In this document: in pieces, positions 5,483-47,540 of the stretch
How the letters are laid out: each line of letters opens with the position of its first letter
Position numbering within the stretch: position 1 is the stretch's first letter
DNA from: Nymphon striatum
Taxonomy: Eukaryota
Length of the DNA stretch: 64,000 nt
Direction: 5' to 3'
Assembly: GCA_016618385.1 (NCBI GenBank)
Contig: JABFOP010000225.1
Location: forward strand, 79,735-143,734
Translations under genes and position numbers: made by a program
The notes under the pieces: generated by a model
The model's database searches: none
What the model was told of the DNA's origin: nothing
Seen by the model: only the letters and a program-made list of their open reading frames with translations

Positions 5483-5851
5483 GTATCGATGGGTAGTTAA
5501 ACTAAACATAACATCAACAACAACAACAACACCGGTATGACTACAAGACACACGACCACACATGGCCACAATATACCACACATGACCAATTTACAGAGAG
5601 TATACAGGGGACATGGGGCCTGCGGGGGTGGGGGTGGGGGAGAGACCAGAGGAATGCTGCCAGCAAGTTTCGTCAATGTACCTTGTAAATATTTGCCACA
5701 AACTGATTATTTAACCAAAACTCCGGTCGTCCGACTAACATAAATAATAGTCATAATAACCTAATGGTAATGTATTTCTCTGGTAAATAACTTTGATTAA
5801 TATTAAATGGATGTCTTAGATTTGATTTATTGATGCCTATATTTATATTAG

Positions 5852-6325
5852 AGAGCGTGGTAGCTGAGTAGTTGAGATCTCTATTCTGGGCTTGAATGAC
5901 CCAGCTTCGAATCTCATTCAAACCCCACCACTTTTTCACCTTTTACGTTGTGTAATCTCGTGCTCTCCTCTCTGATACTAGATGCAGGCTGGTTTTAGAG
6001 AGAAATACTCCATCCCTAGGATAGGACGTTAAATAGAGGTCTCGTGTAATTAGAGAGCCATACCTTCTGCATGTTAAAGAACTCACTTCACTATTCGAAC
6101 AAGAGCAAGGTGGAAGGTCTCGGTGAAGTGGTACACTTGCATTACATTAAGATTATTTCCTCGCCAACACACAATTGGGCCAGAGTGGCAAGTGTAAGGC
6201 CCTACTATCCCGTACTTGAAGTCCTCTAAATTAAAAACATCTGATGATAGAGGACTGGAGATCTAGAAGGGAGGCCTTTGCTCAGCAGTGGGCCTTATTA
6301 AGGTTGATTATGATGATATTTATAT
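5852..6325 (+). mobile_element. tRNA-derived SINE with an RTE-like 3' tail ('SINE-A'), roughly full length.
   Basis: The head carries an A-box-like TAGCTGAGTAG and a B-box GCTTCGAATCTCA. The body is shared with copies at 13440-13640, 29985-30272(-) and 33395-33672(-). The last ~70 bp (GGACTGGAGATCTAGAAGGGAGGCCTTTGCTCAGCAGTGGGCC) match the 3' end of the RTE-like LINE tail at 21720-21780. The copy ends in GATTATGATGAT. Confidence 0.7.
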
Positions 6326-20109: not shown

Positions 20110-20545
20110 ATATTCTTGTAGCCTCTGTGCAGAGTAATGGATAGCTCACCGATGTTGCAATTAGGAGGTGCGGGTTCGACTCCCGTCAGAGGTAAGAGTT
20201 ACTTTTTCTAACTCTTTATAGACGTCCTTATACTTGCTTCTTATCTGTTGTCTTCTTTCTCTTGGTTAGACTTTCTAAACACAACAGAAGCATCATTTTC
20301 GAAATCTCTTTGGTGGAATGACTTCGCTTTCACTCATGACTAGTACAGATAATGGTTTGAAATAATCTGATGAAGAAGCTGGTTCAGATGAGAAAATACT
20401 TCGTCCCTCGGAAAGGACTTTAAAAGAGGTACCGTGTAAAGGTGAGTCATACTCTTTGCACCTTAAAAGGAACCCAATTCACTAATTGAAGAAGTGTAGG
20501 GCTGGAGGTCCTGGTGTGTGGTACACCTGCATTATAGTCGTATAT
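20110..20545 (+). mobile_element. SINE-like copy with a tRNA-like head (B-box GGTTCGACTCC) and a SINE-A-related body.
   Basis: GCAGAGTAATGGATAGCTC...GGGTTCGACTCCCGTCAGAGG, then a body matching 13380-13640. It abuts the Tc1 TIR at 20553. Confidence 0.5.
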
Positions 20546-22134: not shown

Positions 22135-23098
22135 ATGAGACCTCAAACAAATGTGAGTAAAGAAAACCGCATTCGGGTGATTGTGCTGGCAGAAGAGGGA
22201 TATTCTGGTAGAGAAATGGCAGAAATAGTAGGTTGTAATCAATCCACAGTTTTCAGGATACTTTTAAAATATAAAAAAACTGGATCAACAAATGATTTGC
22301 CAAGATCAGGCACACCACGAAAGATATCAGCCCGTCAAGATCGAATTTAGTCTTAATTATCGCTTCTTGACATCACTAGATCTGCTTTCTCAATGGACAG
22401 AAAAGGGATCATTGAACGATTTGGGTGTGTCAACACAAACTAGTTCGACAAAGGCTTAATGATCTTGGCCTAAATGGGCGGAGAACAAGAAATAAGCCAC
22501 TATTAACAAATTCTCAGAGAATTCGACGAATAGCCTGGGCCAAAGAACATCGATCTTGGAGCGCTGAACAATGGGAAAAGGTGATTTATAGTCATGAATA
22601 ATTTCATCCTAATTGCTTAAGTGTGACAGTAAAGCATCCATTGAAAGCGATGGTCTGGGGATGCATGTCTGCAGCTGGCGTCGGCGCCTTCAAATTGTGC
22701 AAGGACTGATGAATGCAGCAAAATATATCGAAACTTTGCATACTAGAATGCGTCTCTCAGCAAAAGAAATGTTTCCAGGTGAAGATTTTGTCTTTCAAGA
22801 TGATAATGCGCCATGTCACCGAGAAAAAGTTGTCAAGGATTGGTTTGCAGCACACAACCTCAAGCGTTTAGATTGGCCTGCCCAGTCCCCGGACTTAAAC
22901 CTAATTGAGAATGAATGGCATAAAATTGGGTACGAGATCTCAAAAAAGAAACCCACCACAAAAAAAGATCTAATTGAAGCCCTTGTCGCATCATGTCATC
23001 GAATAATCTCTTCGGATCTCTTGAAAAAGTTGGTTTTATCAATGCCGGAGCGCTGTTCAGCCGTCATTAAATCTAAAGGATGGCCAACCAGATACTAA
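22135..23098 (+). pseudogene. Tc1-like transposase gene, frameshifted and slightly internally deleted.
   Basis: N-terminal helix-turn-helix (RIRVIVLAEEGYSGREMAEIVGCNQSTVFRIL...SGTPRKISARQDR). The middle is readable across frames (LNGRRTRNKPLLTNSQRIRRIAWAKEH..WS.EQWEKVI.S..). C-terminal DDE region (FQDDNAPCHREKVVKDWF....LDWPAQSPDLNLIENEW......SMPERCSAVIKSKGWPTRY). Confidence 0.85.
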
Positions 23099-23600: not shown

Positions 23601-23949
23601 ATATTACAAACAATTATTTCTTTCCTGGAAATGTGTTTTTCTTTTCAAATGTTTTCAATATGAGTTGTGTTCAATTTAATCTTTCCTTAAGTTGTGGTTT
23701 GAGGAGCACATATGATGGGCCATTCAGAAATTACTTAACTCTTTTTCCGCCCAAATTGACACCCCCACCCCCGTAACACTTAACATGGTCTCTGATCTCT
23801 CTCTGATTTTCAGAAGTAAAATAATAATTCTCGCAGAAATAGTTCGATGATCCAACGGATATTTTAACTTTAAAAGCTCAGCTCAAGTCCGACAAGGTCA
23901 TTTGGTCAATTGAATTTCCTCTACCCCTCACTTTCTTGCTTTTTACAAT

Positions 23950-24130
23950 TGACACTTCGTGTTAAAAAAACGTCCCTACAGGATTCGTGCAATCCAAACC
24001 ACCTTGCTAACGTCACTTTTCTGGTGGCTAACACCCCCACAGACATGATCTAGGGGTCAACAATTTTATAATAGGGGTGTCACTTCAAAATCACTTTTTT
24101 TCACATTTCCAGGCCTCGGATCCCAGACTA
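23950..24130. repeat. Dispersed repeat, two copies (the other at 47565-47720).
   Basis: Shared: TTAAAAAAACGTCCCTACAG.ATTCG..AATCCAAA...CACCCCCACAGACATGAT.TAGGG.TCAAC..TT.ATAATAGGGGTGTCACTTCAAAATCA. Confidence 0.6.
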
Positions 24131-25339: not shown

Positions 25340-26940
25340 AGAACATTAGATGACAACCGAGTGGAGAGAAATGATATTAGAACTGCGTTTCATTCATGTT
25401 TAAAATTGTTCCAGGCTTTGAATAGACTTTTCTAAAATGGAACCTTTTCAAAATTCCAGTCATATAAAGGTAAGGAAACGAACGACCAAGCAGCACACAA
25501 TTATACTCTACTTCAGAGAGGTTACTTCGTTAATTTTAGAACAAACAGTGATTGAATTTTCTAGCCAATATTTGAGCTGAATTGTATGCTACATCTATAT
25601 CTGTAAGTATTTACATTTACATACTTTTAATTCATATTTAATTGTTACTATATAAAACCTATATTTCCAACTTCACCCATTTTACACCTCTCAAATATGT
25701 TCTGTCCAATTTGCCATTTAATATTTGTAAAAAAAAAATTGCCGTGTTTATTCAGTTATTTGTTTGTTTGCTTTGTTGAGTTTAACGACCACCGATACTT
25801 TTAAGGCTCATTCTGAGTCGTCCTCCATCTTCCTATTTAGACCTTTAGAAGGGATGGAGAAAGAAGATAGTATCGATAGGGAAAAATCAGCCGAGAGAAG
25901 TGTATTGGAATAGTTAATATCTCTATTTTGGGCTTGAATGACTCAGGTTCGAATCTCATTCGAACCCCACCACTTTTACAGCAAATCAGTGCACTAAATT
26001 CCCAAGCAGAAGTGAAACACTCGTCTGAGCTCTAAAGTCTTTTATGTCTGTAAATTGTTTGTTATTATTTTATTTTATGTCATGAAAATAGCTTTGATGA
26101 AACCATCTTATTTCGTTGATGTTCAACTATCAATGGTAACATTCTTAAGAGGATCATTTGTCCGAGTGGAGAGAAATAATATTAAAACTGCGTTTCGTTC
26201 ATGTTTAAAATTGTTCCAAGCTTTGAATAGACTTTTCTAAAATGGAACCTTTTCAAAATTCCAGCCATATAAAGGCAACAAGGAAACGACCAATCAGCAC
26301 ACAGATATACTCTATTTCAGAGAGGTTACTTTGTTAATTTTAAAACAAACAGTAATTGAATCAGTGAATTGAATCTTCTAGCCAATATTTGAGTGAATTG
26401 TATTCTACATCTATATCTGTAAGTATTTACATTTACATACTTTTAATTCATATTTGATTGTTACTATATAAAACCTTTTTCCAACTTCACCCATTTTACA
26501 CCTCTCAAATTGTTCTGCCAATTTGCCATTTTTATTTGTTTGTTAGCTTTGTTGAGTTTAACGACCACCGATACATTTAAGGCTCATTCTGAGTCGTCCT
26601 CCATCTTCCTATTTAGACCTTTAGAAGGGATGGAGAACGAAGATAGTATCGATAGAGAAAAATCAGCCGAGAGAGGTGTATTGGAACAGTTAATATCTCT
26701 ATTTTGGGCTTGACTGACTTAGGTTCGAATCTCATTCGAACCCCACCACTTTTACAGCAAATCGGTGCATTAAATTCTCAAGCGGAAGTGAAACACTCGT
26801 CTGAGCTCTAACGTCTTTTATGTCTGTAAATTGTTTATTTTTTTTAATTTTATGTCATGAAAATAGCTTTGATAAAACCATCTTATTTCGTTGATACGAT
26901 CAATGGTAACGTTCTTAAGAGGATCCATTACACGTATAAT
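25340..26940 (+). repeat. Tandem duplication of a ~800-bp unit (25340-26150 and 26150-26940). Each unit carries module B fused to a tRNA-like SINE head.
   Basis: The two units are collinear at about 90% identity (for example, GAGTGGAGAGAAAT.ATATTA.AACTGCGTTTC.TTCATGTTTAAAATTGTTCCA.GCTTTGAATAGACTTTTCTAAAATGGAACC in both). Confidence 0.8.
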
Positions 26941-27373
26941 CAAATACTGAAAATCTATCTCAGAAGTTTGATTTTTTCATTCAGGCCTTTCTTTCCGCAC
27001 TTAGAATTACGCCATTAATTGTAATTGCAACGCAGCTTGATACTGTCTGAATAAATATTTGACGGTAGACATGGATCTGACTTACGATAAAACTTTTATG
27101 TGATTGGGAATTAGTTTCTTAGAGCTTTAGTTGAGATATTTTTTATACTTTTCAAATTGAAAGATCTATATATATTTTTTTTGACCTTATTGCACTAAAC
27201 TCACATGGGTTTTATGGCAAGCTGGAGGCCGTGTCCATCCGACTGAATGCAGTGCTTCTCTGTTAGAACTACAAGCCATAGTGAACGAGTCCTATTTCTC
27301 ACACCGCAGTCAAGAATAGGCGTTCCACGCAGGTGTTACACTTCACCGGGATCACCCTACTCTTTATTCGAAT

Positions 27374-29890
27374 TAGTCCAGTCGATGAGGGCTCAAACTT
27401 GGAACAAATTTGTTTAAAGATGAATTTGGTCTTAAATGAAGCCCACATATATGGAGAATGTTGCTATAAAATTCCACCCTCGTCTTCTTTGGGGAAAAAA
27501 AATACAGGCCTGCCTCTAAACCCGTCAATAACCCATCTTACCACAAGGGTATTGGGGTAGGGCAAATATAAATTCGAATTTGTCAGTAACCAGTAGACAA
27601 GTTTTGACAAATTTATGACCCAACAAAATGTTTGTATTGATGAGTGCTACAGTTTAAATGAGGTCACATGCATTTATGTTAATTAAGTTGGCCTCCAGAG
27701 GTCAAAAGGTCACAAAATTACACATTTGCCCAAAATTAATTTTGGGATACCGGACCAAAATACTCTATAAAACCCAAATTTATCAAATTCTTTTCACCTA
27801 AATTGATTTATGCATTAGCCAAGGCAATACAAAAGTGATTTTAAGCGTCAAATGAGAGATGTTTCATGTAATTACGTAATGATCACAAATGGAAATTGCT
27901 CAAATTTTAAAAAGCATGGATCAGTTCACTTGTGTGGTACATAGAATTTCTCGATCACCAATGGACCATTTTCTACAAAGGACCCATCAAAATGTTTGTC
28001 TTCATCTGTGTTACAGTTTAAATGAGGTCACATGCAATTATGTTAATTAAGTAGGTCACCAGAGGTCAAAGGTCATTACATTTGACATTTTTCCAAAATT
28101 TAGATACCAAACGTATAAAACCAAAAGGCATTAGATTATTTTCACCTAACTGGATTTATGTATTAGCCAAAGCAATAAAAAAGTGATTTTAAGCGTCAAA
28201 TGAGAGATGTTTCATGTAATTACGTAATGATCACAAACTTCTTTTCCTGTAATTTTAAAAAACATGGATCAGTCCACCTGTGGGGTAAGGTATAAATATA
28301 GAATAAATTATAATTTCTCGATGACCAATGGCCCATTTTCCAAAAATATCTCATCATAATGTTTATCTTGATCAGTGCTACAGTTTAAATGGGGTCCTAT
28401 GCAATTATGGTAATTAAGTAGGTCACCAGAAGTTAAAAGGTGACACTGTCAGTCACAAGCACCTATTTTCTGAATGAAAGCAAGATGGCTGTTAGATGAC
28501 GGTTACTCAAAGCAAGTGATGTTATTGACGAGATTATGGCCGATGATGACAGCAGGGACAACTGGGACGGGGACGCCAACGACACGTTCCCTAACAAGGA
28601 GAAAGATGGCACAGAGACAGGTCACCTCAACTCAGCATGCCATGGGATTGGGAGAGAACCACCAGATTTCAACCCAGGATGGTGGAGAATTTAGTCCAGA
28701 TCCCAAATAATCCACAGCCAATTCACTTCTTCTCATTGTACTTAACAGATCACATTCTCCACCACTGTACTGCTGAGACAAACAGATATGCTGACCAGTA
28801 CCTTACTGTCAATCATGCCACAATGAAATGTAGATCCTGCAGACACCAATGGAGAAACGTGAGGAATAACCAAATGAAAAACAATTTCTGGTCATTTTAA
28901 TCTTTCAAGGGATAGTCTACAAACCCAGAATCAGTAAGTATAGGGTAAATCACCAACTATTCGCAACACCCAATTTTTGGGATGTTTTTATACTGAGACA
29001 GGCCTGTCGCACCCATTTTTTGGGGTGAGGCCTGTCTTTTTAATTCTCTATCTTCCTGTGAAAGGGACATCTCTGGGACACCAGTTTATTGGTTTATTTC
29101 CCGTATATGCTATGGATACTAACACAATATGCGAACAGGACAGTAATTTTGGGCGAGGCCTAAGATTGATGACCTTTTGACCTCTGGTGACCTAATTAAT
29201 TTATAAATGTTCATAATGTTGTTTTAGACGAAATGTTAAAGTTTGTGATCTTTTGACCTCTGGTGACCTACTTAATTATTAACATAATTGAGTATGACCT
29301 CATTTAAACTGTAACGCTAATGAAGATAAATATTTTGATGGGTCATTTGTAGAAAATGATCCATTGGTGATTCAGAAATTCTATTTTACATTTACCCTGC
29401 CCCACAAGTGGACTGATTCATGCCTTTTAAAATTAGAGCAAATTCCATTTCTAATAATTACGTAATTACATTCAACATCTCTCACTTGACGATAAACTCA
29501 CTTTTTTATTGACTTAGCTAATAGATAAATCCATTTAGGTGAAAAGAATCTGATGCATTTGGGTTTTATAGAGTATTTTGGTCCGGTATCCAAATGTTGT
29601 GCAAATGTATACTTTTGTGACCTTTTGACCTCTGGTGACCTACTTAATTAATATAATTGTATGTGAGCTCATCTAAACTGTAGCACTCATCAATACATTT
29701 GCCCTTCCCCAATACTCTTATGGTCCGATGGGTTATTGACGGGTTTAAAGTAATTTTTTTCCCTAAGAGGACGAAGGTGGAATTGTATACCAACATTCTC
29801 AATATATGTGGGCTTCATTTAAGACCGAATTCAGCTTTACACAAATTTGTTCCAGGTTAGACCTAATTTCAGCCTTCATCGACTGGACTA
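27374..29890. mobile_element. ~2.5-kb non-autonomous DNA transposon with ~1.1-kb inverted arms built from ~330-bp subrepeats. Termini are TAGTCCAGTCGATGA...TCATCGACTGGACTA. It sits inside a SINE-A copy and has an apparent 3-bp (AAT) flanking duplication.
   Basis: 27374-28450 is the reverse complement of 29170-29890. Each arm holds 2-3 copies of a unit containing TTTTGACCTCTGGTGACCT. The SINE sequence ...CACCCTACTCTTTATTCGAAT | element | AGTGAAGTGTGTTCTTTAACG is continuous across the insertion. Confidence 0.7.
28528..28900 (+). pseudogene. Remnant of the N-terminal region of a piggyBac-type transposase, frameshifted, inside the long-TIR element.
   Basis: MADDDSRDNWDGD...NKEKDG..., then in a shifted frame ...PNNPQPIHFFSLYLTDHILHHCTAETNRYADQYL. 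This fits the conserved piggyBac/PGBD N-terminal block (FF.LF.TDE....IV.ETN.YA.Q). No DDE core follows. Confidence 0.6.
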
Positions 29891-29984
29891 AATAGTGAAG
29901 TGTGTTCTTTAACGTACAGAGGGTGTGACTCTCTTCTACACGAGACTTCTATTAACTATATGTAATTGTTATGTAATGCAAGTG

Positions 29985-30272
29985 TACCATTTCACCAGGA
30001 ATTGTCACCCTACTCTTGTCCGAATAGTGAAGTCGGGAAGTGGGTTCTTTAACGTGCAGCGGGTATGGCTCTCAATTACACGGGACCTCCATTTAACTTC
30101 CTATCCGAGGGACGGAGTGCTTTCTCTCTAAAACCAGCCTGCATCTATTATCAGAGAGGAGAGCACGAGAATACACAACGTAACGGATGAAAAAGTGGTG
30201 GGGTTCGAATGGGATTCGAACCTGGGTCATTCAAGCCCAGAATAGAGATATTAACCACTCAGCCACCGCGCT
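29985..30272 (-). mobile_element. SINE-A copy. The tRNA-like head is at 30195-30272 with A-box TGGCTGAGTGG and B-box GGTTCGAATCC on the minus strand.
   Basis: The reverse complement reads GCGGTGGCTGAGTGGTTAATATCTCTATTCTGGGCTTGAATGACCCAGGTTCGAATCCCATTCGAACCCCACCAC. The body matches 5930-6100. Confidence 0.7.
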
Positions 30273-30284
30273 GTCTATATGTTA

Positions 30285-31421
30285 CAGTGAATGTGTATAA
30301 TGTCTGATTCACTCAGGGAATGTGTATATTGTCTGAAAGTTTCAGGGAATATACATATTCCCTGAAATTTGGACCATTTTGTTATACAGATTCCCTGAAT
30401 CGAATTTTCAATGATTGAACATGATGTTTTTATAGACTTCTTTTCGGTATTCACATCGTCGATGGAGTATAGTTCGTAAGTGCATAAATCAAATTGATTC
30501 CTGGTATATTTTCCACTCAGCATGCCACATTTAACTGCAATCGTATAATTGTCATTTTCGTCATGTCCATAATCATGCCCATGATATTCCTTGGATCTCC
30601 ACGACCCCTATCCACCATTGGTATCGGAACTGTGACATTGTTACCAACGTTTCCGCGGTTCATAATACGACGACTTCGTTTTACCATACGTTCAGCTTGT
30701 AAAAGCTGAACTAACCTAAGGCCAAAAAAAAAAATGTTGTGTTTCCGGTAACCCGACCGACCGTGTAATTTTACCGCCGACTGAAATGTTTTTATGATGA
30801 TTCGGGAAAAACATAGCAAAATGCATGAAATGGTAAAGAAAAAACGTCACAAAATTGGATATTGGTGGGTTATATAATTTCTAGTGAATAAAAAAAAAAA
30901 AAAAAAAAAAAAAAAACCGACCTACCGACCCTGCCGTATGTCAAGACCGTTACCGGAAACACAGCCTTTTTTTTTTTTGGCCTAACCTAATTTCTATAAT
31001 ATAACATTTTTCGATCAGCCTAGATCCAAACAGGTTAGGTAAGGTTTCCTCAACTAAACTAAATAATAGTCTCAATAACCTAACACTTTTAATTTATGTT
31101 TTTTTCTGTTAAGTTTCTGATTTTCTGTTTTTTTCTGTTAAGTCAGGTGAGGTGAGGTGAGGTCAGGTTTTTGATAATTTTTTTTATATTTTGTTTTTTT
31201 TTAAATTTTTTCCAACAAGTTTTTCATTGTCTGTGTCATTGAAAATACGATTCAGGGAATCTGTATAACAAAATGGTCCAAATTTCAGAGAATATGTATA
31301 TTCCCTGAAACTTTCAGGGAATATACACATTCCCTGAGTGAATCAGACATTATACACATTCCCTGAAATTTTCAGGAAATATACATATTCCCTGGTTATA
31401 CACATTCACTGTAACATATAT
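30285..31421. mobile_element. Tc1/mariner-type non-autonomous element (~1.1 kb) with ~130-bp TIRs starting CAGTGAATGTGTATAA and TA flanking duplication.
   Basis: 30285-30410 is the reverse complement of 31290-31421. TA sits immediately outside both termini (GTTA|CAGTG...CACTG|TAAC). The PIF-type MITE copy 2 is nested inside. Confidence 0.75.
30720..30982. mobile_element. PIF/Harbinger-type MITE, copy 2, nested inside the Tc1/mariner-type element. An internal poly-A is present.
   Basis: Same TIRs as 19232-19593 (GGCCAAAAAAAAAAATGTTGTGTTTCCGGTAAC ... GTTACCGGAAACACAGCCTTTTTTTTTTTTGGCC). Flanked by TAA. Confidence 0.75.
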
Positions 31422-33394
31422 ATATATTGAGACTATTTGTGTTCATTAGTAGTTACAGCTAAAGACGAGAGGGTTTCTCCTCTAGTTGAGAAATCAGTGC
31501 ATTTATTAGCTCTGGTTTGATGTGAGGTAGGTTGGAGTTCTTCCCTCAGTTGATTCTTTCCTATCGATAATATTTTCTTTCTCCAACCCTTCTAAAAATC
31601 TAAATAGGAAGATGGAGGACGACTTCAAATGAGAATTAAAATGTATCGGAGGGTCGTTAAACCCAAGAAAATAAATTTAATTTCTTCATCATATTTTATT
31701 TTTATTTTATTTCCAAGTATTACCTACGGGAATAAGTCCAATTTACAGGGTCCGTAATCATCTATATGACATAATATGGGCGTTTTTACGGTTTAATAAT
31801 AGTGAACGTGTGTAATATAAATTCAATTTTATATTTCACGTGTGTATTAAAAATAAAATTGAAAGAACAAAATTAATCCTATGCAGAGAGTATAATATAA
31901 ATTCCTTTCTCTCTCTCTAGAGAGAAAGCTGATAAGAAAAGGAATAAAATATTCCTCCGCGCACAGTAAAAGAACAGCCATTTTGTTTCTTGATAATGCT
32001 AGCTAAATATTATGCATTGATATTAGGAGTACGAATTTATGATTAGCATGCTGAAATACAATGTTCGCTAGTTTTATAAATCTCATATCAAATAGGAATT
32101 CATTTTGTTATAACATTTTGGATGAATATTAAATCGAAAATCTGAATGAGTTAAAACGAAAGAATTATCACGGTTATGGCCTATGCTATGGGCTACGATC
32201 TATGCTATGTGCTAGATTTGAATGCTATTATGCACTAAAAATACTTTGTTTATTAATTGATTACTTTTTTGGCGTTTACATTTTAATTGAATTTCTTATA
32301 CACCGACACACACTTATTTATATGCCACGTTTTACTGGCTAATATAAACACTCTTATTAGTTATAATATTTATTATAATATAAGAAGTATTTAATTCACC
32401 TTGATTTGTTGATCAGTTTTGAAAATGCTTAAAGCAGACGAAAACATGCATCAATGGTTCTAAACCAATGGGGAAGCGAGGGGAATGACAAAGAATTTTA
32501 CACACACGAATGAATGAATGCATGGTCAAGCTTTTTACTATGAATTTAGAAATTTGTTAAATTGTTTGTTTAATTATTTGTTAAATATTATATGTTTCAG
32601 GCATAATTGTTATTGATATTACCAATTTCAAAATATATGTCATATTAACATATTTTCTTGTAAAACTGTTAAGTATCTCTTAATTAATGGAACTATTTTT
32701 ACGCGGATTATTGTAATCTATACTATACAACATACATGTGACAAATACAGCCTGTAGATCAAAAATACCGATAATTTCCCCCTTCTACCGATATACCGCT
32801 CCGGTAGACAAATCTACAGGTGTAGGAATTCTCCAGTATACATTTTTCACAAAGCCATAAAACCTGACATTAGACTGCTGTGTGTATCGTAAATGTGTCA
32901 TGCTGAGGCTAGCTTGCCCCTATGTTGAGTGTTAACCAATCAGATTCAAGTTTATATTATTGGATTTTCCACGGTCCAATCAGAATTACGCTAACAAGTA
33001 TGCATCATTTTGACTTATGTGTATAAAACTACTATAATAATGTTCGAAACATTGCGGTAGAAAAATCTACCTGCCAAAAGTCCAATCTACCTGCCAAAAT
33101 TCTTAAATCTACCTGACAAGCTACAGAAAGCTGTCACATGTATGATACAACAATGCTTCAAATTGAGTCATTTGGTCCTATATAAAAATTTTTAAATGGA
33201 AATTGAATCCATAAGTTGTTTTTTAATTAATTTAAATGTTTTTAAGATATTGTGTGATATGTAATTGTAAAGGATATGTAATTCGTTCCAATTTGATATG
33301 AGATTTGTGAAACTCGCCACCATTGTTTTAATTTTGCTCGCCAAGGCTCGCATCACAAATCTCATATCAAATTGGAACTCATTACATATCCTCT

Positions 33395-33672
33395 ATTTAT
33401 GTAATGTAAATGAACCACTTCACCGAGAATTATCACCCTACTCTTGTTTGAATAGTGAAGTGGGTTCTTTAAAATGCAGAAGGTATGGTTCTCCTCTACA
33501 CGGGACCTCCATTTAACGTCCTATCCGAAGGACAGAGTATTTTCTCTTTAAAACCAGCCTGCAACCAGTATCAGTGAGGAGAGTACGAGAATACACAACG
33601 TAAAAGGTGAAAAAGTGGTGGGGTTCGCAATCTAGCCCAAAATAAAGATCTTCACCACTCAGCCACCGCGCT
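33395..33672 (-). mobile_element. SINE-A copy with tRNA-like head.
   Basis: Head GAAAAAGTGGTGGGGTTCGCAATCTAGCCC...CACCACTCAGCCACCGCGCTC, body matching 29985-30190. Confidence 0.65.
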
Positions 33673-33957
33673 CTCTCATGTTCGATATTAATCCATTTTG
33701 ATCTGACCTCCTGCTTCCTCAACATCTGCTGTGGAAGCTGACGGTGTGCCAGCCGGACACTGTAGTTTGCTCACGGAAGTTATGAATTTCTTGAGGGCAG
33801 CTCCTTTACCGATACCATATAGGCGGGATGTAGTGTCACACCCATGATCACATTGTAGTGAACTTTTAGTTTTTGTATTTTCAAAGTTGAAAAGGTAGTT
33901 CAGTGTTATTGCACCAAATCTGTACTGCAAATAATAATGTGTAGCGAACATAAATCT

Positions 33958-36309: not shown

Positions 36310-39300
36310 CGCTTTGTTTTTTCTTATAAATAAATTAGAGTATTACTCTTAGCTATTAATGAATTTCTAGGTTTAGAGGCTCCAACAAACCAACTTCCAA
36401 CATCTAATAGTTTGTATCATAGAAATAGCTTCTAATTTCAATTTTGTGGTGGTTGTCGGTTATAGGTCATATATTCTCAGGTGAGAATGAAAATCAAAGA
36501 ATAAGTATTTTATAGGTCCAATTTCGTACTCTTATTAGCGCATATCGCTTAGATGGCTGTTAGAAGTACATTTATTGATGCTATTATTCTATTTTGTGGC
36601 ATTAGTTAAAAGTCTAGTTTTTTCATAAATCTTCCATCAAATGTTCAGTTATTAATGAATTTCACGGTTTATAGGCTCCAACAAACCAACTCGGAACATC
36701 TAATAGTTTGTATCATAGAAATAGCTTCTAATTTCAATTTTGTGGTGAATGTCGGTTATAGGTCATATATTCTCAGGTGAGAATGAAAATCGAAAATTTA
36801 CTATTTTATAGGTCCAATTCGTACTCTTAAAAGCGCAAATCGCTTAGATGGATGTTAGAATACAGTTATTGATGCTATTATTCTATTTTGTAAAAGTGCT
36901 AGTTTTTTCATAAATCTTGCATCAAATGTTCAGTTATTAATGAATTTCACGGTTTATAGGCTCCAACAAACCAACTCGGAACATCTAATAGTTTGTATCA
37001 TAGAAAAAGCTTCTAATTTCAATTTTGAGGCGGTAGTCGGTTATAGGTCATATATTCTCAGAATGAAAATCGAAAAAAAATAAAAGAATAAAAATAAAGT
37101 AATTTATAGGTCGAATTCGTACTCCAAATCGCGTATATGAATCAATCTTATATGAACGTATATGAACCAATCTTAGATGGCTGTAAGAAGTACAGTTATT
37201 GTTGCTATTAATCCATTTTGTGACATTAGTTAAATGGCGAGTTTTTTTTATAAATTTTGCATCAAATTTTCAGTTATTAATAAATTTCACGGTTTAGAGG
37301 CTCCAACAAACCAACTTCGAACATCTAATAGTTTGTATCATAGAAATAGCTTCTAATTTCAATTTTGTGGCGGTACTCTTATTTACTTATTCACTTAAAT
37401 TTACTTAGAATTCGTACTCTTAATAGCGCATATCGCATAGATGGCTGTTAAAAGTACATTTATTGATGCTATTATTCTATTTTGTGGCATTAGTTAAAAG
37501 GCTAGTTTTTTCGTAAATCTTCCATCAAGTTCAGTTATTAATGAATTTCTAGGTTTAGAGGCTCCAACAAACCAACTTCGAACTTCTAATAGTTTGTATC
37601 ATAGAAATAGCTTTTAATTTCAATTTTGTGGCGGTAGTCGGTTATAGGTCATGTATTCTCAGGTGAGAATGAAAATCGAAAATAAACTATTTTATAGGTC
37701 CAATTCGTACTCTTAATAGCGCGTATCGCATAGATGGCTGTTAGAATACAGTTATTGATGCTATTATTCTATTTTGTAAAAGTGCTAGTTTTTTCATAAA
37801 TCTTGCATCAAATGTTCAGTTATTAATGAATTTCTAGGTTTAGAGGCTCCAACAAACCAACTTCGAACTTCTAATAGTTTGTATCATAGAAATAGCTTTT
37901 AATTTCAATTTTGTGGCGGTAGTCGGTTATAGGTCATGTATTCTCAGGTGAGAATGAAAATCGAAAATAAACTATTTTATAGGTCCAATTCGTTCTCTTA
38001 AAAGCGCAAATCGCTTAGATGGCTGTTAGAATACAGTTATTGATGCTATTATTCTATTTTGTGGCATTAGTTAAAAGGCTAGTTTTTTCGTAAATCTTCC
38101 ATCAAATGTTCAGTTATTAATGAATTTCTAGGTTTAGAGGCTCCAACAAACCAACTTCGAACTTCTAATAGTTTGTATCATAGAAATAGCTTTTAATTTC
38201 AATTTTGTGGCGGTAGTCGGTTATAGGTCATGTATTCTCAGGTGAGAATGAAAATCGAAAATAAACTATTTTATAGGTCCAATTCGTACTCTTAATAGCG
38301 CGTATCGCATAGATGGCTGTTAGAATACAGTTATTGATGCTATTATTCTATTTTGTAAAAGTGCTAGTTTTTTCATAAATCTTGCATCATATGTTCAGTT
38401 ATTAATGAATTTCTAGGTTTAGAGGCTCCAACAAACCAACTTCGAACTTCTAATAGTTTGTATCATAGAAATAGCTTTTAATTTCAATTTTGTGGCGGTA
38501 GTCGGTTATAGGTCATGTATTCTCAGGTGAGAATGAAAATCGAAAATAAACTATTTTATAGGTCCAATTCGTTCTCTTAAAAGCGCAAATCGCTTAGATG
38601 GCTGTTAGAATACAGTTATTGATGCTATTATTCTATTTTGTAAAAGTGCTAGTTTTTTCATAAATCTTGCATCAAATGTTCAGTTATTAATGAATTTCTA
38701 GGTTTAGAGGCTCCAACAAACCAACTTCGAACATCTAATAGTTTGTATCATAGAAATAGCTTTTAATTTCAATTTTGTGGCGGTAGTCGGTTATAGGTCA
38801 TGTATTCTCAAGTGAGAATGAAAATCGAAAATAAACTATTTTATAGGTCCAATTTCGTACTCTTAATAGCGCGTATCGCATAGATGGCTGTTAGAAGTAC
38901 ATTTATTGATGCTATTATTCTATTTTGTGGCATTAGTTAAAAGTCTAGTTTTTTCATAAATCTTCCATCAAATGTTCAGTTATTAATGAATTTCACGGTT
39001 TATAGGCTCCAACAAACCAACTCGGAACATCTAATAGTTTGTATCATAGAAATAGCTTCTAATTTCAATTTTGTGGTGAATGTCGGTTATAGGTCATATA
39101 TTCTCAGGTGAGAATGAAAATCAAAAATTTACTATTTTATAGGTCCAATTCGTTCTCTTAAAAGCGCAAATCGCTTAGATGGATGTTAGAATACAGTTAT
39201 TGATGCTATTATTCTATTTTGTAAAAGTGCTAGTTTTTTCATAAATCTTGCATCAAATGTTCAGTTATTAATGAATTTCACGGTTTATAGGCTCCAACAA

Positions 39301-42300
39301 ACCAACTCGGAACATCTAATAGTTTGTATCATAGAAAAAGCTTCTAATTTCAATTTTGAGGCGGTAGTCGGTTATAGGTCATATATTCTCAGAATGAAAA
39401 TCGAAAAAAAATAAAAGAATAAAAATAAAGTATTTTATAGGTCGAATTCGTACTCCAAATCGCGTATATGAATCAATCTTATATGAACGTATATGAACCA
39501 ATCTTAGATGGCTGTAAGAAGTACAGTTATTGTTGCTATTAATCCATTTTGTGACATTAGTTAAATGGCGAGTTTTTTTTATAAATTTTGCATCAAATTT
39601 TCAGTTATTAATAAATTTCACGGTTTAGAGGCTCCAACAAACCAACTTCGAACATCTAATAGTTTGTATCATAGAAATAGCTTCTAATTTCAATTTTGTG
39701 GCGGTACTTTTATTTACTTATTCACTTAAATTTACTTAGAATTCGTACTCTTAATAGCGCATATCGCATAGATGGCTGTTAAAAGTACATTTATTGATGC
39801 TATTATTCTATTTTGTGGCATTAGTTAAAAGGCTAGTTTTTTCGTAAATCTTCCATCAAATGTTCAGTTATTAATGAATTTCTAGGTTTAGAGGCTCCAA
39901 CAAACCAACTTCGAACTTCTAATAGTTTGTATCATAGAAATAGCTTTTAATTTCAATTTTGTGGCGGTAGTCGGTTATAGGTCATGTATTCTCAGGTGAG
40001 AATGAAAATCGAAAATAAACTATTTTATAGGTCCAATTCGTACTCTTAATAGCGCGTATCGCATAGATGGCTGTTAGAATACAGTTATTGATGCTATTAT
40101 TCTATTTTGTAAAAGTGCTAGTTTTTTCATAAATCTTGCATCAAATGTTCAGTTATTAATGAATTTCTAGGTTTAGAGGCTCCAACAAACCAACTTCGAA
40201 CTTCTAATAGTTTGTATCATAGAAATAGCTTTTAATTTCAATTTTGTGGCGGTAGTCGGTTATAGGTCATGTATTCTCAGGTGAGAATGAAAATCGAAAA
40301 TAAACTATTTTATAGGTCCAATTCGTTCTCTTAAAAGCGCAAATCGCTTAGATGGCTGTTAGAATACAGTTATTGATGCTATTATTCTATTTTGTGGCAT
40401 TAGTTAAAAGGCTAGTTTTTTCGTAAATCTTCCATCAAATGTTCAGTTATTAATGAATTTCTAGGTTTAGAGGCTCCAACAAACCAACTTCGAACTTCTA
40501 ATAGTTTGTATCATAGAAATAGCTTTTAATTTCAATTTTGTGGCGGTAGTCGGTTATAGGTCATGTATTCTCAGGTGAGAATGAAAATCGAAAATAAACT
40601 ATTTTATAGGTCCAATTCGTACTCTTAATAGCGCGTATCGCATAGATGGCTGTTAGAATACAGTTATTGATGCTATTATTCTATTTTGTAAAAGTGCTAG
40701 TTTTTTCATAAATCTTGCATCAAATGTTCAGTTATTAATGAATTTCTAGGTTTAGAGGCTCCAACAAACCAACTTCGAACTTCTAATAGTTTGTATCATA
40801 GAAATAGCTTTTAATTTCAATTTTGTGGCGGTAGTCGGTTATAGGTCATGTATTCTCAGGTGAGAATGAAAATCGAAAATAAACTATTTTATAGGTCCAA
40901 TTCGTTCTCTTAAAAGCGCAAATCGCTTAGATGGCTGTTAGAATACAGTTATTGATGCTATTATTCTATTTTGTGGCATTAGTTAAAAGGCTAGTTTTTT
41001 CGTAAATCTTCCATCAAATGTTCAGTTATTAATGAATTTCTAGGTTTAGAGGCTCCAACAAACCAACTTCGAACTTCTAATAGTTTGTATCATAGAAATA
41101 GCTTTTAATTTCAATTTTGTGGCGGTAGTCGGTTATAGGTCATGTATTCTCAGGTGAGAATGAAAATCGAAAATAAACTATTTTATAGGTCCAATTCGTT
41201 CTCTTAAAAGCGCAAATCGCTTAGATGGCTGTTAGAATACAGTTATTGATGCTATTATTCTATTTTGTGGCATTAGTTAAAAGGCTAGTTTTTTCGTAAA
41301 TCTTCCATCAAATGTTCAGTTATTAATGAATTTCTAGGTTTAGAGGCTCCAACAAACCAACTTCGAACTTCTAATAGTTTGTATCATAGAAATAGCTTTT
41401 AATTTCAATTTTGTGGCGGTAGTCGGTTATAGGTCATGTATTCTCAGGTGAGAATGAAAATCGAAAATAAACTATTTTATAGGTCCAATTCGTTCTCTTA
41501 AAAGCGCAAATCGCTTAGATGGCTGTTAGAATACAGTTATTGATGCTATTATTCTATTTTGTGGCATTAGTTAAAAGGCTAGTTTTTTCGTAAATCTTGC
41601 ATCAAATGTTCAGTTATTAATGAATTTCTAGGTTTAGAGGCTCCAACAAACCAACTTCGAACTTCTAATAGTTTGTATCATAGAAATAGCTTTTAATTTC
41701 AATTTTGTGGCGGTAGTCGGTTATAGGTCATGTATTCTCAGGTGAGAATGAAAATCGAAAATAAACTATTTTATAGGTCCAATTCGTTCTCTTAAAAGCG
41801 CAAATCGCTTAGATGGCTGTTAGAATACAGTTATTGATGCTATTATTCTATTTTGTGGCATTAGTTAAAAGGCTAGTTTTTTCGTAAATCTTCCATCAAA
41901 TGTTCAGTTATTAATGAATTTCTAGGTTTAGAGGCTCCAACAAACCAACTTCGAACTTCTAATAGTTTGTATCATAGAAATAGCTTTTAATTTCAATTTT
42001 GTGGCGGTAGTCGGTTATAGGTCATGTATTCTCAGGTGAGAATGAAAATCGAAAATAAACTATTTTATAGGTCCAATTCGTACTCTTAATAGCGCGTATC
42101 GCATAGATGGCTGTTAGAATACAGTTATTGATGCTATTATTCTATTTTGTAAAAGTGCTAGTTTTTTCATAAATCTTGCATCAAATGTTCAGTTATTAAT
42201 GAATTTCTAGGTTTAGAGGCTCCAACAAACCAACTTCGAACTTCTAATAGTTTGTATCATAGAAATAGCTTTTAATTTCAATTTTGTGGCGGTAGTCGGT

Positions 42301-45300
42301 TATAGGTCATGTATTCTCAGGTGAGAATGAAAATCGAAAATAAACTATTTTATAGGTCCAATTCGTTCTCTTAAAAGCGCAAATCGCTTAGATGGCTGTT
42401 AGAATACAGTTATTGATGCTATTATTCTATTTTGTGGCATTAGTTAAAAGGCTAGTTTTTTCGTAAATCTTCCATCAAATGTTCAGTTATTAATGAATTT
42501 CTAGGTTTAGAGGCTCCAACAAACCAACTTCGAACTTCTAATAGTTTGTATCATAGAAATAGCTTTTAATTTCAATTTTGTGGCGGTAGTCGGTTATAGG
42601 TCATGTATTCTCAGGTGAGAATGAAAATCGAAAATAAACTATTTTATAGGTCCAATTCGTACTCTTAATAGCGCGTATCGCATAGATGGCTGTTAGAATA
42701 CAGTTATTGATGCTATTATTCTATTTTGTAAAAGTGCTAGTTTTTTTCATAAATCTTGCATCATATGTTCAGTTATTAATGAATTTCTAGGTTTAGAGGC
42801 TCCAACAAACCAACTTCGAACTTCTAATAGTTTGTATCATAGAAATAGCTTTTAATTTCAATTTTGTGGCGGTAGTCGGTTATAGGTCATGTATTCTCAG
42901 GTGAGAATGAAAATCGAAAATAAACTATTTTATAGGTCCAATTCGTTCTCTTAAAAGCGCAAATCGCTTAGATGGCTGTTAGAATACAGTTATTGATGCT
43001 ATTATTCTATTTTGTAAAAGTGCTAGTTTTTTCATAAATCTTGCATCAAATGTTCAGTTATTAATGAATTTCTAGGTTTAGAGGCTCCAACAAACCAACT
43101 TCGAACATCTAATAGTTTGTATCATAGAAATAGCTTTTAATTTCAATTTTGTGGCGGTAGTCGGTTATAGGTCATGTATTCTCAAGTGAGAATGAAAATC
43201 GAAAATAAACTATTTTATAGGTCCAATTTCGTACTCTTAATAGCGCGTATCGCATAGATGGCTGTTAGAAGTACATTTATTGATGCTATTATTCTATTTT
43301 GTGGCATTAGTTAAAAGTCTAGTTTTTTCATAAATCTTCCATCAAATGTTCAGTTATTAATGAATTTCACGGTTTATAGGCTCCAACAAACCAACTCGGA
43401 ACATCTAATAGTTTGTATCATAGAAATAGCTTCTAATTTCAATTTTGTGGTGAATGTCGGTTATAGGTCATATATTCTCAGGTGAGAATGAAAATCAAAA
43501 ATTTACTATTTTATAGGTCCAATTCGTTCTCTTAAAAGCGCAAATCGCTTAGATGGATGTTAGAATACAGTTATTGATGCTATTATTCTATTTTGTAAAA
43601 GTGCTAGTTTTTTCATAAATCTTGCATCAAATGTTCAGTTATTAATGAATTTCACGGTTTATAGGCTCCAACAAACCAACTCGGAACATCTAATAGTTTG
43701 TATCATAGAAAAAGCTTCTAATTTCAATTTTGAGGCGGTAGTCGGTTATAGGTCATATATTCTCAGAATGAAAATCGAAAAAAAATAAAAGAATAAAAAT
43801 AAAGTATTTTATAGGTCGAATTCGTACTCCAAATCGCGTATATGAATCAATCTTATATGAACGTATATGAACCAATCTTAGATGGCTGTAAGAAGTACAG
43901 TTATTGTTGCTATTAATCCATTTTGTGACATTAGTTAAATGGCGAGTTTTTTTTATAAATTTTGCATCAAATTTTCAGTTATTAATAAATTTCACGGTTT
44001 AGAGGCTCCAACAAACCAACTTCGAACATCTAATAGTTTGTATCATAGAAATAGCTTCTAATTTCAATTTTGTGGCGGTACTTTTATTTACTTATTCACT
44101 TAAATTTACTTAGAATTCGTACTCTTAATAGCGCATATCGCATAGATGGCTGTTAAAAGTACATTTATTGATGCTATTATTCTATTTTGTGGCATTAGTT
44201 AAAAGGCTAGTTTTTTCGTAAATCTTCCATCAAATGTTCAGTTATTAATGAATTTCTAGGTTTAGAGGCTCCAACAAACCAACTTCGAACTTCTAATAGT
44301 TTGTATCATAGAAATAGCTTTTAATTTCAATTTTGTGGCGGTAGTCGGTTATAGGTCATGTATTCTCAGGTGAGAATGAAAATCGAAAATAAACTATTTT
44401 ATAGGTCCAATTCGTACTCTTAATAGCGCGTATCGCATAGATGGCTGTTAGAATACAGTTATTGATGCTATTATTCTATTTTGTAAAAGTGCTAGTTTTT
44501 TCATAAATCTTGCATCAAATGTTCAGTTATTAATGAATTTCTAGGTTTAGAGGCTCCAACAAACCAACTTCGAACTTCTAATAGTTTGTATCATAGAAAT
44601 AGCTTTTAATTTCAATTTTGTGGCGGTAGTCGGTTATAGGTCATGTATTCTCAGGTGAGAATGAAAATCGAAAATAAACTATTTTATAGGTCCAATTCGT
44701 TCTCTTAAAAGCGCAAATCGCTTAGATGGCTGTTAGAATACAGTTAATGATGCTATTATTCTATTTTGTAAAAGTGCTAGTTTTTTCATAAATCTTGCAT
44801 CAAATGTTCAGTTAATGAATTTCTAGGTTTAGAGGCTCCAACAAACCAACTTCGAACATCTAATAGTTTGTATCATAGAAATAGCTTTTAATTTCAATTT
44901 TGTGGCGGTAGTCGGTTATAGGTCATGTATTCTCAAGTGAGAATGAAAATCGAAAATAAACTATTTTATAGGTCCAATTTCGTACTCTTAATAGCGCGTA
45001 TCGCATAGATGGCTGTTAGAAGTACATTTATTGATGCTATTATTCTATTTTGTGGCATTAGTTAAAAGTCTAGATTTTTCATAAATCTTCCATCAAATGT
45101 TCAGTTATTAATGAATTTCACGGTTTATAGGCTCCAACAAACCAACTCGGAACATCTAATAGTTTGTATCATAGAAATAGCTTCTAATTTCAATTTTGAG
45201 GCGGTAGTCGGTTATAGGTCATATATTCTCAGAATGAAAATCGAAAAAAAATAAAAGAATGAAAATAAAGTATTTTATAGGTCGAATTCGTACTCCAAAT

Positions 45301-46480
45301 CGCGTATATGAATCAATCTTATATGAACGTATATGAACCAATCTTAGATGGCTGTAAGAAGTACAGTTATTGTTGCTATTAATCCATTTTGTGACATTAG
45401 TTAAATGGCGAGTTTTTTTTATAAATTTTGCACCAAATTTTTAGTTATTAATAAATTTCACGGTTTAGAGGCTCCAACAAACCAACTTCGAACATCTAAT
45501 AGTTTGTATCATAGAAATAGCTTCTAATTTCAATTTTGTGGCGGTAATCTTATTTACTTATTCACTTAAATTTACTTAGAATTCGTACTCTTAATAGCGC
45601 ATATCGCATAGATGGCTGTTAAAAGTACATTTATTGATGCTATTATTCTATTTTGTGGCATTAGTTAAAAGGCTAGTTTTTTCGTAAATATTCCATCAAA
45701 TGTTCAGTTATTAATGAATTTTTAGGTTTAGAGGCTCCAACAAACCAACTTCGAACATCTAATGGTTTGTAATATAGAAATAGCTTCTAATTTCAATTTT
45801 GTGGTGGTAGTCGGTTATAGGTCATGTATTCTCAGATGAGAATGAAAATCGAAAAATAAGTATTTTATAGGTCCAATTCGTACTCTTAATAGCGCATTTC
45901 GCTTAGATGCCTGTTAGAAGTACATTTATTGATGCTATTATTCTATTTTGTGGCATTAGTTAAGAGGCTAGTTTTTCCATAAATTTTGCATCAAATTTTC
46001 AGTTATTAATGAATTTCACGGTTTATAGGCTCCAACAAACCAACTCGGAACATCTAATAGTTTGTATCATAGAAATAGCTTCTAATTTCAATTTTGAGGC
46101 GGTAGTCGGTTATAGGTCATATATTCTCAGGTGAGAATGAAAATCGAAAATTAAGTATTTTATAGGTCCAATTTCGTAATCTTATTAGCGCATATCGCTT
46201 AGATGGCTGAAAGAAGTACTGATGGCTGATTGATGTTATTTTGTGGCATTAGCATTAAAGGGCTAGTTTTTCCATAAATATTTCATCAAATGTTCAGTTA
46301 TTAATTAATTTCACGATTTAGAGGCTCCAAGGCTCCAACAAACCAACTTCGAACATCTAATAGTTTGTATCATAGAAATAGCTTCTAATTTCAATTTATT
46401 GGCGGTAGCCGGTTATAGGTCATATATTCTCAGGTGAGAATGAAAATCAAAAATTAAATATTTTATAGGTCCAATTCGTA
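36310..46480. repeat. Satellite DNA array, ~10.2 kb, about 35 monomers of 261-340 bp (mode ~285-300), with higher-order repeat structure.
   Basis: The monomer landmark GTTATTAATGAATTTC(T/C)A(G/C)GTTTA(G/T)AGGCTCCAACAAACCAACT recurs at 36352, 36652, 36937, 37277, 37538, 37822, 38117, 38402, 38683 ... There are two main alternating variants (GTGGCATTAGTTAAAAGGCTAGTTTTTTCGTAAATCTTCC versus GTAAAAGTGCTAGTTTTTTCATAAATCTTGC). A ~900-bp three-monomer block marked by the insertion AAAAAAAATAAAAGAATAAAAATAAAG recurs at 37076, 39408, 43782 and 45246. Confidence 0.95.
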
Positions 46481-46789
46481 CTGATGACCTCCATGACCAT
46501 GGATTGGGTGGTGTTTTCATTGACTGGGGCTAAAGAGACACTCTCTTATCACAGGTGTCCTCGAATTGTTACTTGAACGTAATATTTGCACCTCTATCTA
46601 CAGTTTTATACTGTTTGACCTATATGACCTACAGCTTGTCAAGTGACCGCTTGTTTCAGGTGATTAACATTGAAAATAAATCGTAGATGGCAGGCGTCTG
46701 CCCATCGCAGGATCTGTACAAGACAGGTTTTCCTGTGTTCAGTGCATATGGGCATTTTGTAAATATAATATAATATAATATAGCAAGGT

Positions 46790-47540
46790 ATTCATCCTTG
46801 AATAAGCTACGCGTCCACTTGTTTGCATCTATCTTGTTTGTATCTCCAACAGAAGATGAGTTTCACTTCCACGTTCTCAGGAACCTTTGTCAGATCAGCT
46901 TCACTCAAATCTAGTGCAAATCTAGTGCTTCTTCCACCTGAAGACTATGGCAGAATTGTGGATAAATAATAGGTTAATTTCTGTCAAGAAGAGCATGCCA
47001 TCAAATCCTTCTACTGCAAAGTTGAAGTACTGCTATTGCAAGAAAAACCGAACTGATTGGGGAATTTCCTTTGTGCGGAAGCTGAAACATGCATTATTGC
47101 ATATGCCAGAGAAAGTCGACATAGGAAAATATAAACGGTTCATTACTGATGATGATGGTGACACTTTTGTACCGTATACTTAAATATTAATTATATGTAG
47201 TTTTTGCTATTATTTTTCAATTTATGCAAATCTAAATTTAATTACTGCTATTCAATCCATTCAGTCCTGTGCCATAACAAATTAGAGGAATGCAAAGATG
47301 CAACATATTTTGGGTTATTTTGGGTTATTCTGGATATATCAGGATATATCTGGATATATCAAGTATGTAAAAATGTGAATTATTTGATAAAGTTGTTAAA
47401 TTTTCAGCTTAACCAACTTTTATATTAAACAAGTTGTTAAGTAACAACTTGTTTCATAAAAAAGTTAAATTTTGTGAGGTAAATTTGTTGCATTTACTCC
47501 TTCCTGTATTATGGGATTTCAATTGAATTTCCCCTACAAT
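46790..47540 (+). mobile_element. Second, degenerate copy of the window-start element: the CXC-ORF 3' part (46790-47183, with stops) plus downstream region ending ...TTCCCCTAC.
   Basis: TTCATCCTTGAATAAGCTACGCGTCCACTTGTTTGCATCT matches 85-125. ...PSTAKLKY.YCKKNRTD... parallels ...PSAAKLKYRKCKKKPN... Both copies end near ...(C)AGTTTCCCCTAC (1268 / 47538). Confidence 0.7.

Follow-up and report, generated by a model that had tools for sequence, protein, structure and literature searches.

The 64-kb stretch of Nymphon striatum DNA analyzed here (contig JABFOP010000225.1; called the window below, in whose positions all coordinates are given) contains a 2,517-bp element with long terminal inverted repeats (TIRs) at 27374–29890, inside a short interspersed element (SINE). 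An initial annotation had described a non-autonomous long-TIR element that is inserted in a SINE, flanked by a 3-bp duplication and bounded by ends unlike those of piggyBac transposons. Our analysis supports this description and identifies the element as very probably a non-autonomous transposon of the AcademX lineage (Academ superfamily), nested in the SINE and carrying piggyBac-derived cargo. The locus is made up of the following features.

27325–27373, minus: interrupted copy of the host SINE-like repeat, its 3′ side, aligned with the copies at 29975–30270, 33250–33750 and 5800–6260
27371–27373, unstranded: left copy of the target-site duplication, AAT, from empty versus filled SINE sites
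27374–28445, plus: left arm (long TIR), ~200 bp of unique terminal sequence followed by ~3 tandem subrepeats (348–367 bp) with one 24-nt box each
27374–27397, plus: putative terminal recognition sequence TAGTCCAGTCGATGAGGGCTCAAA, mirrored at 29867–29890; the pair is unique in the window
27554–27567, minus: subterminal island ATTTGCCCTACCCC, with a right-arm copy at 29697–29710; aligns with the ATTTCCCCTACCCC-type islands of the metagenomic loci L072, L035, L105 and L048 and of the copy at 1–1463 of the window
27689–27712, minus: outermost left 24-nt box, 3 mismatches, 315 nt from the end
28053–28076, minus: second left 24-nt box, TTT in place of TTTT
28420–28443, minus: innermost left 24-nt box, degenerate, at the inner edge of the arm
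28446–29169, unstranded: core, 724 bp, outside the inverted repeat
28536–29005, plus: piggyBac (PGBD4-like) transposase N-terminal pseudogene fragment with an apparent start codon and two frameshifts, from translations, Pfam, phmmer and alignment
29170–29890, plus: right arm (long TIR), ~2 subrepeats, without 66 bp seen in the left arm (27567–27632)
29170–29193, plus: innermost right 24-nt box, exact
29246–29269, plus: second right 24-nt box, 1 mismatch
29618–29641, plus: outermost right 24-nt box, exact, 249 nt from the end
29891–29893, unstranded: right copy of the target-site duplication, AAT, from empty versus filled SINE sites
29894–29953, minus: host SINE-like repeat, rest of the interrupted, 5′-truncated copy, from the direct repeat and SINE alignment

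Element structure and insertion site

The element begins with TAGTCCAGTC and ends with GACTGGACTA. Its boundaries read GAAT/TAGTCC on the left and GGACTA/AATAG on the right. The terminal sequence TAGTCCAGTCGATGA(G/A)GGCT is present at both ends and nowhere else in the 64 kb (2 matches, 0 expected). Even when as many as 3 mismatches were tolerated, the 19-nt terminus matched the two end positions only, again with 0 expected within the window. The outer 24 nt (TAGTCCAGTCGATGAGGGCTCAAA) recur as an inverted copy at the opposite end with two mismatches.

The inverted long arms reported in the initial annotation are real, but they are neither perfectly mirrored nor both ~1.1 kb long. A gapped alignment of arm against arm gave 569 identical positions out of 640 (88.9%; Kimura two-parameter distance 0.12), distributed over 15 blocks between indels across ~700 bp. 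The left arm measures 1,072 bp and the right arm 721 bp, because the number of internal tandem subrepeats differs (~3 on the left, ~2 plus one extra box on the right) and because the 66-bp stretch is absent from the right arm. The period of these subrepeats is 348–372 bp, not ~330 bp as first estimated. The core between the innermost boxes, given initially as 0.7 kb, spans 724 bp; for its segments 28446–28535 and ~29006–29169 we found no match. Given the 11% divergence between the arms and the frameshifted cargo, this copy is an old and inactive fossil.

The host is a tRNA-headed SINE-like repeat of ~280 bp. The window contains at least three further, uninterrupted copies, at 6085 on the minus strand and at 30008 and 33436 on the plus strand. 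They read ...TTGTYYGAATAGTGAAGT and, likewise in all three, ...CTCTTGTYYGAATAGTGAAGT.... Removal of the element together with one AAT and joining of the flanks restores exactly this uninterrupted sequence: the three paralogous empty sites read GAATAGTG, and the filled site reads GAAT/element/AATAGTG. The element therefore arrived as a single unit and produced a 3-bp AAT duplication; the initial annotation had noted the continuity of the SINE across the insertion and an apparent AAT duplication. From the boundaries alone, shorter duplications with asymmetric ends would be formally possible; judged by the sequences of its relatives (see below), the assignment settles on TAG...CTA ends and 3 bp.

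Terminal architecture and AcademX relatives

Animal AcademX transposons are described by Kojima (2020, PMC7165386) as having 3-bp target-site duplications, a 5′ pyrimidine, a 3′ purine and, in some families, TIRs longer than 100 bp. We compared the window termini with those of Academ-4, -5, -6, -7, -8, -9 and -N4_ADi as depicted in Supplementary Figure S2 of that paper. Academ-6_ADi from Acropora digitifera has the ends TAGTCCAGTCATTTT.../...AATGACTGGACTA and the duplication TTA, Academ-7_ADi has the terminus TAGTCCAGGCAAT... with duplications AAA, TAT and TTA, Academ-5_ADi has TAGTCTGGCAGC... with AAT, and Academ-4_ADi has TAGTCCGGGAGC.... In this source, the published animal AcademX ends follow the pattern TAGTC(C/T)(A/G)G...C(T/C)(G/A)GACTA. 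The first 10 nt of our element are identical to the Academ-6_ADi terminus, and its ends TAGTCCAGTCGATGA.../...TCATCGACTGGACTA together with the AAT duplication fit the coral AcademX ends and 3-bp duplications shown there. The element also starts with a pyrimidine and ends with a purine. With Academ-6_ADi, Academ-7_ADi and Academ-4_BF of Branchiostoma floridae, it shares the ends TAGTCCAG...CTGGACTA and a 3-bp AT-rich target duplication, and long TIRs are included in the superfamily. A further occurrence of TAGTCCAG at 35709 was discarded, as it looks like a chance 8-mer.

A second line of evidence comes from the subterminal sequences. The motif TTTTGACCTCTGGTGACCT, which had been noted initially in the subrepeats, is indeed present three times per arm, with 1–3 mismatches in the left-arm copies. 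It is part of a 24-nt box, TGACCTTTTGACCTCTGGTGACCT, whose left-arm copies lie on the minus strand and whose right-arm copies lie on the plus strand. A scan of JGI metagenome contigs for the exact box returned more than 120 contigs. Several of them contain the box repeated at a spacing of 365–371 bp, and two (L061 and L072) contain it in inverted configuration around large open reading frames (ORFs), both as in the window. An Academ-like protein is encoded on 14 of 120 box-bearing contigs.

L072 represents a complete element, with ORFs of 1,093 and 488 aa between TIRs of ~500 bp. Its ends, TAGTCTGGGAGCC.../...GGCTCCCAGACTA, are of the same type as those of the window element, and its boxes lie 325 and 335 nt from these ends. 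L061 (1–8008) contains a single uninterrupted ORF of 1,514 aa between 100% identical TIRs of at least 1,377 bp. These TIRs reach both contig ends, and the true termini are not captured. L061 appears to be intact and may represent an active AcademX copy or an assembly artifact. Pfam assigned only a weak DUF6589 match to the large ORFs of the relatives. Comparison with the Academ-4_BF transposase domain, taken from the supplementary alignment of PMC7165386, was more informative: L061 is 53% identical over 425 aa (E = 9e-156) and L072 is 26% identical (E = 9e-40). The L061 and L072 proteins are 24% identical to each other. The Academ transposase that is absent from the window element is thus encoded by elements with the same end architecture. 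Four short relatives with TAGT(C/G)CAG ends are flanked by perfect 3-bp duplications at independent sites (L014, GTT; L035, GTT; L048, TAT; L105, CAT).

The proteins of these arm-sharing relatives combine the Academ transposase domain with a C-terminal cluster of eight cysteines. This cluster is conserved in L061, L072 and the window ORF at 3–488 (CKKKPNCLRNCPCAKAAVPCIIACACNGDREKC) described below, and its pattern suggests a putative Cys8 zinc finger. The large protein also contains conserved D...D...ER...HEEADTR...DTD...SGCD motifs that look PIN/XPG-like. We saw no helicase ORF. An XPG-type nuclease domain sets AcademX apart from AcademH.

A further copy in the window itself belongs to the autonomous type:

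1–1463, plus: AcademX copy, 3′ end, cut by the start of the window, with an ORF C terminus at 3–488, two 353-bp subrepeats and the right terminus ...CTCTGGGTCCCCTACTA

The product of ORF 3–488 is 67% identical to the C terminus of the L072 protein (E = 5e-68) and has a Cys-rich tail with the Cys8 cluster. The exact 24-nt box is found at 762–785 and 1115–1138, within the 353-bp tandem repeat that directly follows this ORF, and islands of the types described below lie at 1202–1212 and 1257–1270. Between the 353-bp repeats (550–1226) and the 365-bp arm subrepeats of the element, only a region of ~30 nt around the box could be aligned; with the box masked, the two scored no better than shuffled sequences.

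We then aligned the segments from box to terminus of both arms with those of L072, L035, L105, L048 and the copy at 1–1463. Both arms align with L072 and with the window copy through conserved islands separated by unalignable spacers. The island TGAGTGGTCAT lies ~65 nt outward of the box and has been lost from the right arm of the element, the island ATTTCCCCTACCCC lies ~130 nt outward of the box, and the segments share a terminal ...C(Y)(R)GACTA, in which ACTA is common to all. The distance from box to end is 315 and 249 nt in the element and ~310–335 nt in the four metagenomic loci. Termini, duplication length and subterminal islands are those of AcademX, and hence the option that a different element captured a piggyBac fragment, one of two left by the initial annotation, is the one that held up. 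Relative to known AcademX transposons, the element differs by being non-autonomous, by its unusually long arms (0.7–1.1 kb) with ~365-bp tandem subrepeats and by the foreign piggyBac gene fragment. It adds a member to an already known kind of transposon, and the conserved subterminal islands are the mildly novel part, most of all the 24-nt box, which highly divergent AcademX families have in common.

The box is 24/24 identical in L061 and L072, the transposases of which are only 24% identical. Since these loci were chosen by exact box match, this identity is to be read with caution, but it is best read as a sign of selection on cis-acting sites. Such conservation is unusual for a transposase-binding site, because these sites normally co-evolve with the protein. 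Alternatively, the box may be where a host factor or a conserved domain of the Academ protein binds. On the complementary strand it has the form AGGTCA-ccag-AGGTCA-aa-AGGTCA, that is, three direct repeats with spacings of 4 and 2. We take these half-sites to resemble nuclear-receptor response elements, and AAAGGTCA presumably resembles an NBRE. We tentatively propose that a conserved cis-recognition module of an AcademX subgroup may consist of the box, the TAGTC terminus and the two smaller islands. If true, the Academ superfamily would thereby gain its first defined cis-element. Neither the box nor the islands are mentioned in the passages of PMC7165386 used here; the box sequence is absent from the supplementary files of this paper, including the AcademH consensus sequences, and from the literature searched. 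A literature search with the box and terminus sequences found no papers.

Several observations weigh against the assignment to AcademX. The relatives were picked by exact box match, and the universality of the box among AcademX transposons is not established by this sample. A single copy of the exact family is known, with 0 matches to its 20-nt terminus in the JGI metagenome contigs. The XPG nuclease of the relatives was not confirmed by Pfam, by a PDB profile search or by hhalign against human FEN1. At ~23880–24130, the window contains a third AcademX right-end fragment (...GGGGTGTCACTTCAAAATCAC...GGATCCCAGACTA/aaa). Its homology to the L072 right end is clear, and the box that would be expected ~330 nt upstream is missing; for this reason we regard this fragment as truncated or decayed. 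L072 and L088 also lack matching 3-bp duplications. These two loci (L072, 497/6874; L088, 1180/7559) represent one AcademX family with 99.9% identical ORFs and different flanks, and their flanking triplets are unmatched (ATA/ACC and TAA/ATA), unlike those of the short relatives. The mismatch may reflect chimeric metagenome assembly across a multicopy repeat. Finally, the route by which the cargo entered is inferred, and one copy cannot separate filler acquired during gap repair from a nested insertion.

A piggyBac fragment in the core

The initial annotation had claimed that a frameshifted piece in the core matches the conserved N-terminal block of piggyBac transposases. This claim proved correct. 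Frame translations and the alignment with relatives place the homology at ~28536–29005, corresponding to ~155 codons with frameshifts near 28636 and 28880. The fragment starts in frame 3 (MADDDSRDNWDGDANDTF...), continues in frame 2 (PWDWERTTRFQP...FFSLYLTDHILHHCTAETNRYADQYL...) and ends in frame 1 (EKQFLVILIFQGIVYKPRISKY...LFATPNFWD). The Pfam profile DDE_Tnp_1_7, which had been suggested as a check, scored 22.0 bits against a cutoff of 22.4 bits over profile positions 2–73 of 349, and was thus sub-threshold when taken alone. Alignment with the solved piggyBat transposase was collinear but weak. A full phmmer scan against 1.84 billion representatives instead identified 375 proteins at E ≤ 1e-3 and 12 at E ≤ 1e-10, with a best match at 1e-23 and 54% identity. 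Nine of ten matches submitted to Pfam contain DDE_Tnp_1_7 (E = 1e-71 to 1e-100 for the full-length ones), in two cases with an added zf-Tnp_2 or BTB domain. Named relatives are annotated as "piggyBac transposable element-derived protein 4-like" from molluscs, Hydra, spiders and rotifers. Word-indexed homology searches returned nothing with the stitched fragment, only fragments of at most 42% identity with a seven-sequence alignment, and 7 proteins of at most 38% identity with the three closest sequences. On these comparisons, with the phmmer scan as the decisive one, we consider the piggyBac homology to be real but partial. The ~155 codons correspond to the N-terminal region of PGBD4-like transposases (WxWE...FTG, ETNRYA and GIVYKPR motifs); the fragment has neither the catalytic DDE core nor the C-terminal zinc finger and retains no more than the first ~20% of the transposase domain.

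The tenth match (P0027) belongs to no Pfam family. It is a 703-aa host-like gene model from another genome, the closest among the gene models with such a fragment, and has an in-frame piece that is 59% identical to the fragment; the match includes the DSRDNGDAND... N terminus and stops at ETNRYADR. P0027 looks like a host gene model that absorbed a similar fragment, which suggests that such fragments are exonized or misannotated elsewhere.

The ends of full-length relatives of the fragment could be examined at two loci. The best representative, P0001, lies on the NCBI chromosome-scale assembly GCA_910592395.2 (locus L001, 54% identical to the fragment) and forms one full transposase together with the adjacent gene model. 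The surrounding element reads TTAA/CCCTTTCGCTGCGG...CCGCAGCGAAAGGG/TTAA with a perfect 18-nt inverted pair. P0010, a full-length relative on a short contig (locus L002), reads TTAA/CCCTTTCG, with only the left end visible. Since the visible ends are canonical at L001 (both) and L002 (left), the clade of the fragment uses the canonical TTAA/CCC ends of piggyBac.

These ends bear on the other option of the initial annotation, a divergent piggyBac relative with unusual ends. The element would then have lost internal sequence but retained the 5′ portion of its own transposase gene, in a lineage that had evolved long TIRs, TAG termini and 3-bp rather than TTAA duplications. Such a fragment is what one would expect after a simple internal deletion in an autonomous element, and an apparent ATG followed by an acidic N terminus does lie 90 bp inward of the left arm in sense orientation. 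However, the relatives with visible ends have canonical ones, and neither TTAACCC nor GGGTTAA occurs within 26000–31500. The target duplication is AAT in place of TTAA, the ends are TAG...CTA in place of short CCC...GGG TIRs, and of the DDE_Tnp_1_7 catalytic domain there is only the frameshifted N-terminal part. Termini, duplication and islands instead fit AcademX elements whose autonomous copies code for Academ proteins, and another element of the window that bears this box contains the end of an Academ-type ORF. We conclude that a divergent piggyBac origin is very unlikely and that the option of unusual piggyBac ends fails.

Two other readings concern the arms. The AAT duplication fits the 5′-ANT-3′ rule for the 3-bp duplications of the Pangu group of the PHIS superfamily (Han et al. 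2015, PMC4482050), which made a non-autonomous Pangu element a candidate. Pangu TIRs are 11–40 bp long and mostly start with AG or GG (PMC4482050), in contrast to the 0.7–1.1 kb TIRs and TAG start found here. The arm-sharing relatives encode Academ rather than PHIS (PIF/Harbinger-like) transposases, and the related short elements have GTT, TAT and CAT duplications, of which GTT is unlike ANT. This candidate was dropped after the Academ ORFs and the published AcademX termini had been found, and we give it hardly any credence. The unequal lengths of the arms, their identity of only 89% and a core unrelated to AcademX would also be expected if two AcademX-derived miniature copies (MITEs, miniature inverted-repeat transposable elements) had come to lie head-to-head around an older piggyBac remnant. 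Such a composite is highly improbable, as the SINE continues from one side of the 2,517-bp insertion to the other, one perfect 3-bp duplication flanks the outer ends, and each arm has an outer terminus only. Furthermore, none of the core, the piggyBac remnant included, is present at the empty SINE sites; the core therefore arrived together with the arms.

Proposed mobilization, significance and other repeats

How might a non-autonomous AcademX element with this structure have arisen? Since it encodes nothing functional, an AcademX protein would have had to mobilize it in trans. This would be a protein of ~1,500 aa with a transposase domain, a nuclease-like region and a Cys8 zinc finger; such a copy ends at 1463. 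We surmise that it would recognize the TAGTCCAG termini together with the islands, namely the box ~250–335 nt from each end, TGAGTGGTCAT and ATTTCCCCTACCCC. A staggered cut of 3 nt in the SINE target, once filled in, would yield the AAT duplication. The arms may have grown, and the box may have come to be present in triplicate, through tandem duplication of the ~365-bp unit that contains it. The piggyBac piece would be a passenger, either filler copied in during the repair of a double-strand gap after excision or the residue of a nested piggyBac insertion that later lost both ends. Non-autonomous DNA transposons that carry gene fragments are known, such as Pack-MULEs and the deletion derivatives of Ac/Ds and hAT elements with filler DNA. 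They too contain unrelated captured coding DNA between intact ends. The present element differs in that its piece stems from another transposon and not from a host gene, and in that it belongs to the Academ superfamily.

In annotation, this region is to be masked as a SINE-nested, non-autonomous element of AcademX. To report it as a novel piggyBac lineage that integrates at sites other than TTAA would be a mistake; a claim of that kind would have been notable. The case illustrates that a short recognizable protein motif inside a transposon can mislead the call of the superfamily: the class is decided by the ends and the target duplication, not by the cargo. Academ, a superfamily of cut-and-paste transposons, is among the least characterized superfamilies of eukaryotic DNA transposons. 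The end architecture, consisting of the TAGTC terminus, three subterminal islands and a tandem-amplified box unit, offers candidate binding sites, and the conserved subterminal box is the feature worth following up.

The window contains further repeats. A third Academ-like C-terminal coding fragment at 46687–47048 (plus), 43% identical to the L072 ORF by tblastn, directly follows a ~10-kb satellite array (36354–46482; 34.6 copies of a 285-bp unit). Just downstream of the end of the AcademX copy at 1463, a 170-bp tandem repeat occupies 1619–2153 (3.1 copies, 95% matches). A Tc1/mariner-type transposase fragment lies at 22613–23098 (plus; Pfam DDE_3, E = 2.4e-12). Rfam called a tRNA at 20121–20194 (plus, 39.8 bits) and ARAGORN found no tRNA in the window; the call probably reflects a tRNA pseudogene or the head of a SINE. 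Just past the SINE cluster, a 29-bp near-palindromic unit (TTTCAGGGAATGTGTATA...TCTGAAA) forms two arrays in opposite orientations, at 30281–30350 and 31283–31394, ~1 kb apart.

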